Of a stretch of DNA of 62,297 nt, positions 3,001 through 9,000 are shown one piece after another. The number at the start of each line of letters is the position of its first letter. The first letter of the stretch is position 1. The position numbers are program-made. The DNA is taken from the NCBI RefSeq assembly GCF_024298765.1, contig NZ_CP101213.1; one strand, given 5' to 3'. This DNA is from Escherichia coli. Lineage in GTDB: Bacteria; Pseudomonadota; Gammaproteobacteria; Enterobacterales; Enterobacteriaceae.

Positions 3001-6000
3001 ACGCCGCGTTCTGGTCATGCCAGAAAATCCTGTGGTGAATGAAAAGCCGCAGGAAGTACAAAAATCAGCAGTTAATGAAAACAAGAAAGTACAGAAGAAA
3101 GATGCTGTAGCAGAGAAAACACGTAAAAAGCAGCCTCAGCCCTGGTATTTGAAAAAACAAATCACTTTTCCCCCAAAATATCCGAAAGAATATTTTGAAA
3201 AGTGTTTCAATAAAGTTCGTGCTGTTTTTCCTGAACTATGGACAGACGAAAAAAAGAACTTGCCCCTGAAAAGCGGGATTCTCCAGGACGTTGAGAAATA
3301 CCTGGCGGATAACCCGGATGTGGATCTGACGATTGAAGAGTGGAATTGTGCGGTTCAGGTGATGACGTTCCGGTGGCAATATCTTCAGAATTGTACTGTA
3401 CCAGGCGCAACACGTTACGACCTTTACGGGAAACCTGCTGGTACAGTAAAAAAAGCACACGCAACTTATGCGCAACTGGTTCTCGATGCCCGTAAGAAAG
3501 CCAGCGAGAAGAAACAATTAAAACGTAAGGGATAAAGCCCCGAAGGGCTTTATCATTTCAGCCTGGCTGACTGTAGAATCCAGTGATTTTTTCCGTTTTC
3601 GTCCAGGCCGTGTTCGTAAGCTGCAAGAGCCGCTTTCATTATTGCTGTTTTTGTCTGGCCTGTTCGCAGTGCTTCCCGTTCCAGAATATCTTCGTAAACG
3701 TCCCCAAGCCGGACATTGGTCACTTTAGTTGCTCCCGATTTTTTGCGGGTAGCTTCATTGATGAATCGGGCTGTGTCTGCATTGGTTTGTTCTGTTTTTT
3801 GTCCTGGTATTACCGGAGTTTTCAAGTCAAGAGCCATTATATCACCTTTCGTGTGTTACATTAGCTTTACTGTGTAAAGCTAATGATGTAAAGCGATCGT
3901 ATTACATCCATTAGGGATTGATGCCTAACTCTTGCGCCAAAAGCTCTATTTGTGCTTTAGCTGTAGAAAGGCTGGATGCGCGACGTACATCATGAACGCC
4001 AGCGCCTTCATTACAGGCCGCTTCAAAAATATCTAAATCTGAAATACGTGTACGAAGTGGCTGTATCCACACCGGGTTCTCCCGGAGTAACTTGTCGAGA
4101 TCAATCGCTGCTTTTCTGTGGCGTGGTTTTGTCGTGTTAATTCTCGTGAAAAGTACCCAGGGTTGCAGGTCTGGATTGATCTGTTGAGCTGTGCGAACTT
4201 TTTCTGTTACATGAGTCAGCGTTTCTGCTTCGAAATCTGAAGACGGCTTAACGAGAGTAAGCAGAGTGTCAGCTACAGTTAAGGCGCTGCGAAATTCCTT
4301 GCTGTCATGACCTGGACAGTCAATGATCAGCACTTCACATATTTTTTTCAGGCGCTTAATGACTTCTGATACATCGCCATACTCTTCATAAACAGGAACC
4401 GGTAATAAGCCATTCTGCTTTCTTTTTTCGTTCCAGCTAAGAATATCATTGTTTTTATCGGTCTTCAGAATGATGACCGTTCGTGAATTATTTACCAGAT
4501 AAGAAGCCAGGTTTGTTGCTGTGGTGCTTTTTCCTACACCGCCTTTATCTGATGCGACAAGTAATGCTCTCCCCATAGAAACCTCGGATATACAGTGTAA
4601 AGGTTTATTTGTCTTTACATTGTATTCATTATAGTTACGTTGTAAAGATGTTTGTGTCTTTACAATGTAATTGCTTTTGTGCTTTACATTGTGTGTATGT
4701 TACAGGGTAACTTTTCAGGATGCGATTTTGCCTGGTGTGTTGTTGCGCCCGTAGCTCGCTGACGCTCACACGCGCAGTACAGCGCCCCGCCCTGCTGCAA
4801 TGCACCAGGACGGCGTAAACTCGCTGGCGCTCGCGCTAACTGCGGCATTCTGCGGCGCAAATCAGCATTATCATGGCCTGTTGGTCTGTCCTGGCTTTGC
4901 AGGGCGAAGGGATGGCCCTGTGCATCCTGGTATGTTCGTCAGCGGCTGCGCCGCGCTTCGGGGCGATGTGGCCCCGCTGCTCCCTGGTATTTTCTTTCGC
5001 CCCTTCTATCCGCTGGCGCGGATTAAAAAATGAGCAAACCATCAAATAACTTGCTGTTTTCAGGCAATAAATCTTGATAATACATCTAAATAGATGTATT
5101 ATTGTTTCATCGAAAGGGGATTGGCTCCTTTCCTTCTTAAGTCCAAACGGACAGGAGATTTAAAATGAAAACATTGACTTTTAATAACGGCACTGTTTCT
5201 GTTGGCGATGTGTTTGTATCTTCCTGGGGATATGAGCAAACGAACGTTAATTTCTACCAGGTTATTTCTGTTCATGGCAAAAAAACAGTAACTGTTCAGG
5301 AGATTCGCGCTTCAGTTCATCGGACTCATTCAATGAGCGGATATAAGACTCCATTACTTAATGATTTCTGTGGTGAGCCATTAAAACGGCGAGTGCGTGA
5401 TTATTACAGTTCGCCAGCAATTGAAATTGAGGAATTCGAAACAGCATATAAAGGATCACCGGAAGAAAAACACGAGTTCACATCATACTACTAAGAAAAT
5501 AGTTGCAGGGGGTATCCCCTGCAACCATGTTAAAAATGTTAATAGTAGTATTTACCCAGGGGGTTTTAGTATGAATGATGGGGTAAAACTCCGTCCTTCA
5601 GGGCGTGGAGAATGCCGGGCTAATGCAGCAATGTAATGTTGCGCCCGTAGCTCGCTGACGCTCACACACGCAGTACAGCGCCGCGCTTCGGGGCGATGTG
5701 GCCCCGCTGTTCCCTGGTATTTCCTTTCGCCCCTTCTATCCGCTGACGCGGATTAAGAAACGAGCAAATCATCAAGTAAATTGCTGTTTTCAGGAAATAA
5801 ATCTTGATAATACATCTAAATAGATGTATTATTGTTTCATCGAAAGGGGATTGGCTCCTTTCCTTCTTAAGTCCAAACGGACAGGAGATTTAAAATGAAT
5901 ATCCAGGAAGCATTAAACGTTTTTGGATTATCCGGCGAATTAACTGAAAAAGATATCAAAGCAGCATACAGAAAAGCCGCTTTAAAATATCATCCAGATC

Positions 6001-9000
6001 GTAACCCGTTAGGGGCTGAACTGATGAAAGCGGTAAATGCAGCTTTTGATGTCTTGATGGCAAATATTGATAAAATAAATCAGTTCCAGAGCGCTGATGA
6101 ACATGCACGATATAATTACGGTGATGACCTGGAAAAAGTATTAAACGTTCTTTCTGGTTTATCTGGTCTGGTATTTGAAGTGATAGGTAACTGGGTATGG
6201 ATTAGTGGAGAAACTATTACACATAAGGAAACTTTAAAAGAAATCGGGTGTAAATGGGCGGCAAAGAAAAAACAATGGTTTTATCGTCCAGACGAACATA
6301 AAAGTTACTGGAATCGTGAAGAACACACGATAGAAGAAATCCGCGCAAAATACGGTACAACCGGACAGCGCAGGGCGACAGGGTGGCAACGCGTGGAAAC
6401 CAGAGCGTAACCAGAACGGGGGCGAGAAGCCCCCGATATCATACCAGCCCGTCTTTTGGGGCATCGAACCCAAAAAGACGGGAACAGCAGCCACGTAGCA
6501 AAAAGGGAAACAGATGAACTCTTTTTTTGAACAGTATCACCCTGTCTTTGAAGTTGTCTGCCGTATCCTGGGGAACGGCTGGCGCGTGAACAAACTTGAT
6601 GATTGTCCGTCTCGTATAAAACTGACGTCACCGCAGTTTAAAAATTACTCTGTGCATATTCGGATGGAAAAAGACCGATTTTCTGTTGTGGGGAGTGTGG
6701 ATAGTCGTTCCTGGAGTAGTCCGTATCATGTTTGTACGTTATCCAGGAAGCGGAATCCCGTTGATATAGCAGCCAATATCGAACGAAAAATTTTGCTAAA
6801 TGCTTCGCAGGAGGTGTTACAGGCGATTGAGTATGAGAAACGCCAGGCGGCAAAAAAGGACGAAATTCTGATCCTGAAAGGTATGTTATCGCAACTTGTC
6901 CAGCTTGAAAGCTGGTATGGGGCATTGACAGGCTTTAAAGCTGAAAATGGATTGAACGGTAAAGTCACCGAGCAGGGCGAGCGTTATGATTTGCAGATTA
7001 GGGGTTTGAGTATAGATCAACTTGTTAAAATTACAGGATATTTGAAACAGTTATGAGAAAAAACAAAGGGCGATTGACTTATTATCTTGAAGTGATTGAT
7101 AAAAAATACCATTTTGTAAAAAAAATAAGCAGTTATTCAAAGGAGTTCACTGACGGAAAAACAAAAAGAACAAAGAGAACGTTAAGTGAGCTGGTTTTTA
7201 ATGAAAGTGAGGTCGAGGCAATAGACTTTACAAAAAATGGTTTAAGACCTGTTGATAAGAATATTCTCTTAACTATGGTGAAAGAATATAAGGAGAGTGA
7301 TGCATGACTATTGAAAATACACCGGAAAACATAAAGAAATTACGAAAAAAAATTGGCCTTACCCAGACAGAGTGCGGTGAGATTTTTGGCGTAGGCTTAA
7401 GTACATGGCAGAAAAAAGAAGCTAAAACCCACAACCAGCTTAATTTATCGAAAGGTGAATTTGAGTACCTGTTATTACTTGCAGGGGAGCACCCTGAATA
7501 CGTCCTGCATAAAAAAGCTGAATCCCGCTCACCGGAGGAACCGTGAGCGAGAAGAAAAACACCACGACGCAGAAATCTAAGATATACAGTGTAAAGGTTT
7601 ATTTGTCTTTACATTGTAATTGTTCTTTGTCTTTACACAGTGTGTGTTTGTAACAGGGCGACTTTACATAATTGCGATTTTGCCTGGTGTGTTGTTGCGC
7701 CCGTAGCTCGCTGACGCTCACACGCGCAGTACAGCGCCCCGCCCTGCTGCAATGCACCAGGACGGCGTGAACTCGCTGGCGCTCGCGCTAACTGCGGCAT
7801 TCTGCGGCGCAAATCAGCATGATCATAGCCTGTTGGTCTGTTCTGGCTTTGCAGGGCGAAGGGATGGCCCTGTGCATCCTGGTATGTTCGTCAGCGGCTG
7901 CGCCGCGCTTCGGGGCGATGTGGCCCCGCTGCTCCCTGGTATTTTTTTTCGCCCCTTCTATCCGCTGGCGCGGATTAAAAAATGAGCAAACCATCAAATA
8001 ACTTGCTGTTTTCAGGCAATAAATCTTGATAATACATCTAAATAGATGTATTATTATTTCATCGAAAGGGGATTGGCTCCTTTCCTTCTTAAGTCCAAAC
8101 GGACAGGAGATTTAAAATGAAATTCACTTCAACCACGAATCATGTTTTCACATTCGAACGAGTAACGCTTTGCACGATTGTTCTTATTCATAAGGATACG
8201 GGACAACAGTATGTTGTCATATTTACGGATAACAATAAAATTCGTGACTATAAGACCGGAATTGTTTCTCAGTTTGGTGAACTTAAGCAGAGTGATATTG
8301 ATTTAATTCTTTTCTATCGGGACGAATATGAAAAATATTTTGACTCGTTAAATAATGGCGAGGAGTATTTGAGTTTTAAAGAATATATCGGATGTATAAG
8401 GGGAAAATAAATTATGAAAGGTGTGTTCAGGTTGCTGGAACAACCTGAACACGTTATCGACAATCAAAACTGAATGAGGTTTTTAAATGTCAACACGACA
8501 GATCGTACAGCTTGCTGACTCCCTTGTCAAAGGCTGGGAAACCAGAATTCCGGCAATGACGTGCACGGAGTGGGATCAATTCCGGTGGTGGTTAAACTAC
8601 CTGCAAGGGTATGAAATGTTTTAAATAACCGGGATAAATTCATATATGGGGAGAGTGTCATGCTCTCCCTTTCTTATTGGGTAGCGAGTTGTATTACATA
8701 TTTAGCTTTACGTTGTAAAGATTTTATTGTCTTTACAGTGTGGTGTGTTTTCCGGCGGTTGCGCTGCGCTTAGGGGTATGTGGCTTCGCTGCTCCCTGGT
8801 ATTTTCTTTCACCCTCCTATTTGTCCGATGACTTTTGACAACAACGCTATTTGTAACTATAATTAGTTGCATGTTGGCAAGGGATGGGATTATAGCGTAT
8901 GGGGAAAGCAGATAAGCTACTGGCAAAATTTTTAAACAGTAAAAAAACGTTTGAATGGGATGAACTCGTTGTTTTGTTTTCTTCTCTAGGATATGTCAAA

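Follow-up and report, generated by a model that had tools for sequence, protein, structure and literature searches.

The DNA analysed here, a stretch of 62,297 nucleotides from Escherichia coli contig NZ_CP101213.1 (hereafter the window), is an IncI2 mcr-1 plasmid. Many ~60-kb plasmids of E. coli and Salmonella match its interval 4560-8900 at 100% identity; one of them (CP085520.1) is typed IncI2, MOBP and MPF_T and has mcr-1.1. Our subject is a set of repeated GC-rich modules, with the promoters and genes attached to them, that lies between parA and hicAB. On one side of the modules are rep (1-1029), then hok/sok and a ProQ/FinO gene, and parA with a CopG-like gene (3911-4576, minus strand); on the other side are hicAB, a traL-type operon on the minus strand, the presumed oriT at ~13.5-13.86 kb, and mobC with the relaxase gene (13858-18509, plus strand). 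The modules are thus flanked by par/rep on one side and by oriT and the relaxase on the other, and every gene that they drive is on the plus strand and faces oriT. No primase gene is annotated on the plasmid.

A repeat search recovered three and a half modules, with matches of 82-99%, at the places given in a preliminary description of this DNA. Copies 1 and 3 match at 4721-5020 against 7673-7972 (98%) and at 4948-5169 against 7900-8121 (99%), copy 2 is made up of 5632-5686 (55 nt, 93%) and 5678-5899 (96%, against 4948-5169), and copy 4 is partial (8741-8814, 82-88%), the repeat search also giving it at 8773-8814. Copy 2 is without ~165 bp corresponding to ~4790-4947, in keeping with the internal deletion of ~170 bp that had been claimed for it. 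Because its two matches overlap by 9 nt at GCGCC-CGC (5678-5686 against 4782-4790 and 4948-4956), the sequence suggests that this deletion arose by slippage or microhomology. The G+C content is 0.59-0.62 within the modules versus 0.30-0.44 in their flanks, which bears out the earlier picture of GC-rich modules in an AT-rich backbone. A coding role is unlikely, as had also been proposed, because open reading frames are lost in copy 2 and indels of 1 and 4 nt separate related lineages. We found no matching family in Rfam and nothing matching the modules in a phage collection, and an origin as an insertion sequence or REP element, which the preliminary description had also raised, found nothing in its support.

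Each module consists of two separable parts, a ~290-bp GC-rich element (GCE) and a ~130-bp promoter/leader cassette, and the identity between copies extends to the ATG at 5165, 5895 and 8117. In module 1 the GCE occupies 4742-5030 on the minus strand and includes a 5' domain predicted to form a four-way junction (4743-4860), a block containing an invariant CTG (the CTG block, 4893-4903), and, at 5008-5023, the terminal hairpin ATCCGC-TGGC-GCGGAT with an A run behind it. Its plus-strand cassette (5074-5164) has a conserved -35 (5074-5079), 17-bp spacing and -10 (5097-5102), a palindromic spacer and putative operator (5077-5102), hairpins in the untranslated leader with compensatory stem changes (5112-5132 and 5141-5152), and a Shine-Dalgarno sequence (5153-5157) before the ATG at 5165. 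Module 2 has a truncated GCE (5637-5763, minus strand) from which profile positions ~55-206, including the CTG block, are deleted, and its cassette (5804-5894, plus strand) drives a J-domain operon (5895-7546) that ends with an XRE/MqsA-like helix-turn-helix (HTH) gene (7304-7546, plus strand), the candidate repressor of the palindromic operators. Module 3 is again complete, with a GCE at 7694-7982 (minus strand; CTG block 7845-7855) and a cassette at 8026-8116 (plus strand) that drives a 97-aa gene (8117-8410), and module 4 retains only the 3' domain of the GCE (8738-8820, minus strand), followed by a consensus promoter (8835-8863) before hicAB. The modules do not all have the complete GCE: copies 1 and 3 have the CTG block, and copy 2 is without this presumed start block. 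The terminal hairpin was considered as a terminator and rejected, since the A run comes after it on the plus strand and the T run before it on the minus strand. The module-driven genes are at 5165-5494, 5895-6410, 6514-7056, 7053-7307 and 8117-8410; one encodes a J-domain protein, the 109-aa and 97-aa proteins matched only PHROG families of unknown function, and relatives of the island on other plasmids (L117 and L004) include antirestriction genes.

By homology, the modules are relatives of the conserved upstream (CUP) repeats of the IncN plasmids R46 and pKM101, a family that the preliminary description had not recognised. Local blastn gave repeated collinear matches in R46 (IncN) 5' of ccgAI, ardA, ccgD and ardB and near rep. 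Furthermore, when an nhmmer profile of IncI2, IncX and pJARS36 copies alone was run on R46, it found exactly the five CUP repeats and nothing else (E-values 9e-14, 7e-13, 2e-11, 2e-9 and 1e-3; profile positions 29-290 of 293). The alignment with the R46 copies is collinear, with shared blocks and compensatory changes such as AGCGC/GCGCT versus GGCGCC/GGCGCC and TTGCGCC/GGCGCAA versus GTCCCCC/GGGGGAC. Two module copies are present in IncX4 plasmids (84% identity) and two in pJARS36 of Yersinia pestis (67%), and further homologues occur in an IncX6 plasmid and other IncX-like plasmids. The homologues are always 5' of the J-domain gene or of small genes facing oriT and the relaxase, and the order GCE, promoter, gene, oriT, relaxase was seen in 13 of 14 copies. 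The two parts also occur separately: the J-domain gene in three IncX lineages has only the last ~100-130 bp of the module (promoter and leader), and the ~290-bp GCE occurs alone elsewhere. IncN-type copies are present in ~1,900 plasmid records and those of the IncI2/IncX type in ~1,200. More distant copies are found in Candidatus Erwinia dacicola, Pectobacterium carotovorum, a Pantoea plasmid and a Klebsiella MOBP plasmid; in a 17-mer scan of genome contigs most hits were chance matches in high-GC genomes, and the real ones were those in Erwinia, Pectobacterium, Pantoea and two plasmid-like contigs.

It has been reported, in papers that cite Delver & Belogurov 1997 (PMC6289460, PMC5371602, PMC6294495), that the leading-region CUP repeats of pKM101/R46 contain promoters and sites for ArdK and give rise to deletions and inversions, and CUP-mediated rearrangements of both kinds are described in IncN2 plasmids (PMC5371602, PMC3490853). 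According to a 2018 paper, the GC-rich part of CUP had never been looked at closely. Like the IncI2 modules, the IncN repeats exceed 400 bp, lie directly 5' of leading-region genes facing oriT and recombine with one another, and the homology covers the whole GC-rich part and a TCATCGRRAGG leader. The promoter at the 3' end of the IncN repeats has a counterpart in the IncI2 modules that is predicted from its conserved consensus. The two differ in their downstream genes and in their regulators, which are ArdK/ArdR for CUP and, in the IncI2 modules, appear to be a palindromic spacer operator with an XRE-type HTH protein. A tblastn search found no ArdK/ArdR homologues in IncI2 or IncX plasmids; a role of the GCE as a platform for ArdK/ArdR was rejected on this ground. 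The operator, too, is a different palindrome. We also observed promoterless orphan GCEs in inverted orientation, at 4178-4448 of L005 near parA and at 32815-33150 of R46 (L113) near rep/resolvase, and single CUP-type copies that adjoin resolvase genes on IncR and IncFIA plasmids (L114, L115).

To describe the structure of the GCE, we compared consensus folds of its two strands. Both strands yield a consensus fold, and the minus strand folds better, at -69.5 versus -61.9 kcal/mol for 12 copies and at -32.6 versus -23.8 for 17 lineages. The 5' ~120 nt form a four-way junction composed of a closing helix, a short hairpin, a long arm and a further hairpin. The base of the long arm, CGCAGT/ACTGCG, is invariant, and the CTG block and the CGCAGTAC/ACTGCG arms are unchanged from IncI2 to IncN and Pectobacterium. 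A covariance model built from ten close copies on the minus strand recovered the Pectobacterium copies at full length, matched the IncN-related and Klebsiella copies weakly (E 0.003-0.07), and gave against the R46 CUPs a local match alone (E 0.37). In the covariation alignment 96.2% of cells are paired and 18 of the 36 pairs change on both sides; none of 500 shuffles reached any of the observed measures, and slid controls paired 26-49%. Non-Watson-Crick cells comprised 50 G.T on the minus strand against 10 A.C (7 without a palindromic reverse hit), A.C on the minus strand being counted as G.T on the plus strand. One pair, for example, is T.G in IncI2, C-G in IncX4 and G.T in R46. In addition, the DNA minimum free energy was lower on the minus strand in all 15 lineages, by ~5 kcal/mol on average, and the advantage persisted in 13 of the 15 after shuffle means were subtracted. 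Stability in excess of what base composition provides is modest: the whole-module folding z was -4.6 on the minus and -3.5 on the plus strand, and the 5' domain had a mean z of about -1. Taken together, these results support a conserved multi-helix fold of the GCE, with the minus strand favoured by the G.T versus A.C counts and the folding energies, and they agree with the earlier expectation of a structured minus strand, the presumptive transferred strand. In one copy from Candidatus Erwinia dacicola (L081, 630-733) the long arm is a perfect 21-bp inverted repeat, CGCAGTACAGCGCCCCGCCCG / CGGGCGGGGCGCTGTACTGCG; one side appears to have been recopied from its partner, which hints at hairpin formation in vivo.

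A second line of evidence comes from replication origins. The broad GCE profile, built from 17 lineages, matches the ori region of the window (1648-1887, E 8e-17), of ColIb-P9 (2083-2326, E 9e-15) and of R100 (40270-40514, E 1e-11). All three matches are 600-860 bp after rep, past the DnaA box and directly 3' of the GTTGTAAC Ter site, and all five window matches of this profile share one orientation. In a control of 0.9 Mb of mostly GC-rich DNA no unrelated match was better than E 1e-3. A narrow profile of R100 and ColIb-P9 detected the window element at 1611-1877 (E 1e-89), so that the GCE-related element, a presumed G site on the minus strand, is placed at 1611-1887 by both profiles and by a motif that it shares with the modules. 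This motif, CCTGCWAAGCC, occurs three times in the window (1748-1758, 4893-4903 and 7845-7855), always on the minus strand, versus 0.05 expected; the ori-region occurrence reads CCTGCTAAGCC (minus strand, 1748-1758), and the CTG within the block is invariant across the 17 lineages. The block matches the annotated primer start of phage G4, CTACTGCAAAGCC, at 3993-4005 of the viral strand (CCGTCCCTACTGCAAAGCCA); in the GenBank entry for G4 the annotated RNA primer spans 3970-3997, and the origin is position 3998, which is the G of this CTG. The alignment of the GCE to G4 by nhmmer falls exactly at this primer start, with the GCE minus strand corresponding to the G4 template strand (E 0.15).

G sites are primase-dependent, G4-type signals for initiation on single-stranded DNA; phage G4 oric is one, and another is reportedly the leading-strand start downstream of oriR in R1/R100, which we take as such here. 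In R1, two ter sites lie between oriR and the leading-strand start site, according to a review. The window shows a Ter-like GTTGTAAC at 1574 followed by the GCE-related element (1560-1890), and the order ori, ter, presumed leading-strand start is that of ColIb-P9 and R100. The ori copy has the same orientation as the modules, which fits rightward leading-strand synthesis away from rep. The GCE thus resembles G sites in its profile homology to elements at that position in R100, ColIb-P9 and this plasmid, in the CTG of a block matching the G4 primer start, in its template-strand hairpins, and in a polarity that would send synthesis the useful way. Unlike them, it lies in the leading region in several copies fused to promoters, and on the template it has, 3' of the CTG, an additional four-way-junction domain that is highly conserved. 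On this comparison a primase signal of the G-site type is the most likely identity of the GCE. Among the papers available to us none extends CUP to IncI2 or IncX plasmids or ties CUP to G sites, and the connection between the two may be new.

The same homologies can be read without any role in single-stranded DNA. The GCE might be the relic of a duplicated ori G site that now acts as a block of homology through which RecA shuffles, removes and swaps promoter-gene cassettes, both inside one plasmid and from plasmid to plasmid, and copies that are 98-100% alike within a plasmid and 67-84% alike between plasmids indeed bespeak concerted evolution. Truncated, orphan and inverted copies exist, the genes downstream of each copy differ, and the CUP-mediated rearrangements of IncN2 plasmids (PMC5371602, PMC3490853) point the same way. 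However, any sequence could serve as a homology block, whereas here compensatory changes have kept the helices paired and the CTG block and CGCAGTAC/ACTGCG arms do not vary across IncI2, IncN and Pectobacterium; nor would a G.T strand bias be expected of a purely duplex role. We therefore consider this explanation unlikely, although it fares better than the other alternatives to a priming signal.

The cassette that follows the GCE has the features of a regulated promoter. TTGATA-N17-TATTAT occurs at 5074-5102, 5804-5832 and 8026-8054, and the downstream hairpins and the ribosome site GGACAGGAGATTTAAAATG are identical across copies 1-3, as had been stated for the hairpin and ribosome-binding site. 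The claim that all modules share this promoter held for copies 1-3 and not for copy 4, which is followed by a different hicA promoter, the perfect consensus TTGACA-17-TATAAT (8835-8863). Likewise, a palindrome does span the promoter, ATAATACATCTA-AA-TAGATGTATTAT at 5077-5102, and it is 26 nt long with 12-nt arms instead of the 22 bp given previously. Promoter-like sites across 3800-11000 are at chance level (16 found versus 15.4 expected); TTGnnA, a 17-bp spacer and TATTAT (or TAATAT, TATCAT) are kept in every lineage. The spacer palindrome differs in sequence from lineage to lineage and always retains its symmetry: ATACATCTA/TAGATGTAT in IncI2, ATACGAC/GTCGTAT in IncX4, ATACGTCCA/TGGACGTAT in pJARS36, TAGGTCAT/ATGACCTA in IncX6 and TTACCGCA/TGCGGTAA in one further lineage. 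The two leader hairpins also show compensatory changes, e.g. GTCC/GGAC versus GCCC/GGGC. In each lineage the J-domain operon ends with a gene for an HTH protein of 71-80 aa that is similar to the MqsA DNA-binding domain and to Aca3, an anti-CRISPR-associated repressor. Its recognition helix reads VGL(S/R)TWQKKE where operators are of the ATAC.. type and M(T/N)(A/P)R(S/T)WRRKE where they contain TAGGTCA. Because the palindrome varies along with the recognition helix, it is probably an operator within an ordinary double-strand sigma-70 promoter, and a burst of expression is therefore predicted in a repressor-free recipient. A GTGA-N6-TCAC sequence resembling a class I CRP site is present ~70 bp 5' of the start in IncX4 (L002 ~8105-8120) and pJARS36 (L003 ~1885-1900 and 3883-3898) and has been lost from the IncI2 modules.

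The layout of the island bears on the strand that enters the recipient. In ColIb-P9, ardA, psiB and ssb are across oriT from nikAB and face oriT, and R46 and this plasmid have the same layout, so the leading-region arrangement proposed in the preliminary description agrees with the gene order. Since relaxase genes are typically the last to enter (PMC11541004), we infer that the transferred strand is the minus strand.

Given this geometry, the modules had been interpreted as single-strand promoters of the Frpo/ssi type. We compared them with reference and candidate sequences from Samuel et al. 2024 (supplementary file 4; 13 sequences) and found no similarity, either by blastn on the window (word size 7) or by nhmmer with the GCE profiles, and the GCE covariance model found nothing in the ColIb-P9 leading region; the anticipated alignment to F Frpo and ColIb-P9 ssi was thus not obtained. 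When the promoter was folded on the minus strand, the expectation that -35 and -10 are rebuilt in a stem was not borne out either: it formed its own 26-nt hairpin only, in which the -10 pairs with the sequence adjoining the -35 and the -35 itself stays unpaired. No conserved long stem was predicted, nor any quasi-duplex that fits -35, 17 bp and -10, and no promoter-like site was found on the minus strand within the GCE. An extended -10 in a hairpin, considered as a minimal single-strand promoter, was rejected as its TG is misplaced or absent in other lineages. Judged by alignment and fold, the modules are not F-type single-strand promoters. They share with Frpo/ssi (class 1 of F and ColIb-P9, classes 2-3 of the IncI1 plasmid pESBL; PMC12672017) a GC-rich, folded sequence in the leading region, repeated 5' of operons read from the transferred strand, and differ from it in having no sequence similarity and no long stem-loop rebuilding -35/-10. 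The likely partner is primase for the modules and RNA polymerase for Frpo/ssi. Of the earlier assignment, 'ssi-type' is apparently right in the sense of a DNA-priming signal, and the Frpo-type promoter is unsupported.

The idea of the preliminary description can also be taken as a single-strand promoter of a new class. The folded GCE on the transferred strand would here be transcribed by RNA polymerase before complementary-strand synthesis, and the leading-region position, the template-strand geometry and the conserved structure favoured on the transferred strand all fit. There is also a precedent, since new and non-homologous classes of single-strand promoter were found 5' of ardA, klcA and a methylase gene in IncI1 (PMC12672017). 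The negative searches described above argue against it, however: nothing similar appears among the references or in the ColIb-P9 leading region, the fold offers no long quasi-duplex, the GCE holds no promoter-like site on the minus strand, and the palindrome of the known promoter pairs with itself and leaves -35 single-stranded. Moreover, a good double-strand promoter with a probable operator lies directly downstream. We regard such a promoter as improbable, slightly more so than the homology block.

We favour instead a G-site-like priming signal coupled to a repressor-controlled promoter, with zygotic induction as the outcome, as the best explanation, and give it somewhat better than even chances. 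The minus strand of the GCE would be a single-strand initiation signal of the DnaG-primase type, with hairpins and the four-way junction arranged around the CTG start block. As the minus strand enters the recipient during conjugation, a primer started opposite T4901 or T7853 would grow toward higher coordinates and so cross the terminal hairpin, then the promoter 44 bp beyond it, and then the gene, and the adjacent promoter and gene would become double-stranded ahead of the remaining plasmid. Module 3 would precede module 1 into the recipient, each converting the stretch that came in just ahead of it. With the spacer palindrome serving as the operator of the XRE-type HTH protein from the end of the J-domain operon, the promoters would fire in a naive recipient until the repressor accumulates. 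What was computed is the homology to CUP and the ori elements, the covariation, the strand bias and the geometry, and priming, repression and timing are proposed from them. In known zygotic-induction regulons (pLS20, PMC6294495; IncP KorA/KorB) several promoters likewise share one operator and a repressor from the same region, and a burst on entry is predicted; the IncI2 modules differ in the presumed priming signal before each promoter.

The conserved multi-helix structure on the transferred strand would also suit a folded GCE that impedes complementary-strand synthesis or provides an SSB-free landing pad, thereby tuning how long the DNA stays single-stranded. Such a role has been proposed for Frpo in F, and a 2026 preprint describes a single-strand promoter as a structural roadblock (10.64898/2026.01.09.698686). 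Yet a roadblock just 5' of a double-strand promoter would delay, not hasten, the use of that promoter, its stability is modest, and the G4-like CTG block and the ori-region relatives would be left unexplained, so that we think it very improbable. Least probable of all is action of the GCE as RNA, whether as a structured leader or 3' untranslated region on the plus strand or as minus-strand antisense RNA: in IncX plasmids the stop codon of the HTH gene upstream does immediately precede the GCE, and G.U-type pairs are typical of RNA, but the strand bias disfavours the plus strand, no minus-strand promoter or terminator flanks the GCE, Rfam gave no match, and the ori regions contain relatives where no such transcript is expected.

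Several observations weigh against a priming signal. The stability of the fold barely exceeds that of shuffled sequence, and the covariation alignment, having been fitted to a minus-strand model, tilts the G.T and A.C counts towards the minus strand. It takes a broad profile to connect the GCE with the ori G sites; the narrow R100 and ColIb-P9 profile finds the CUP/GCE copies weakly (E 0.13-0.6), though in the right places and on the right strand. The similarity to G4 is limited to a block of ~11 nt, at the E of 0.15 given above, the R100 element is presumed to be a G site from its position and from earlier reports, and the direction of IncI2 transfer is deduced from gene order. Copy 2 and the J-domain promoters of three IncX lineages are without the start block or the whole GCE, and therefore the promoter needs no GCE. 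Finally, the orphan copies of L005 (4178-4448) and R46 (32815-33150) are inverted, and the near-identity of copies within a plasmid shows that recombination clearly acts on them.

The proposal extends beyond this plasmid. The CUP-type repeats of more than 3,000 IncN, IncX and IncI2 resistance plasmids would be primase starts on the transferred strand, each before a repressor-controlled promoter, in an order of 'prime, then transcribe'; this generalization is tentative, and we rate it somewhat below an even chance. How plasmids express protective genes within minutes of entry is under active study; the single-strand promoters of F and IncI1 plasmids are the one mechanism known so far, and the GC-rich part of CUP has been without an assigned function since 1997. 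If true, the proposal would supply a second, testable mechanism of early expression distinct from those promoters. It would cover the main carriers of mcr-1 (IncI2, IncX4) and of NDM/KPC (IncX3, IncN), among others, and it would explain how the complementary strand is started in plasmids without an annotated primase. The sequence profile and the motif can now be used to find such sites.

Additional features were observed in and around the island. The sok antitoxin RNA was matched by Rfam with 98 bits at 2459-2630, next to the annotated hok, and a weak second copy is at 2294-2434 (2294-2630 in all). A match to GcvB at 10593-10723 scored 29 bits, below the gathering score of 42, and is probably due to chance; it overlaps a palindrome pair and a terminator-like hairpin at 10696-10716. 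The palindrome CTTTACA-N-TGTAAAG has 15 matches versus 3.9 expected, all of them in the par and leading region (3865-10648), with examples at 4588-4672, 7582-7621, 8706-8745, 10064-10103 and 10609-10648. It is specific to IncI2, with none seen in IncX relatives. Most of the matches are paired, 25 bp apart, and located just 5' of a module (1, 3 or 4) or of another promoter; a plasmid regulator or the CopG/ParG-like partition protein probably binds them.

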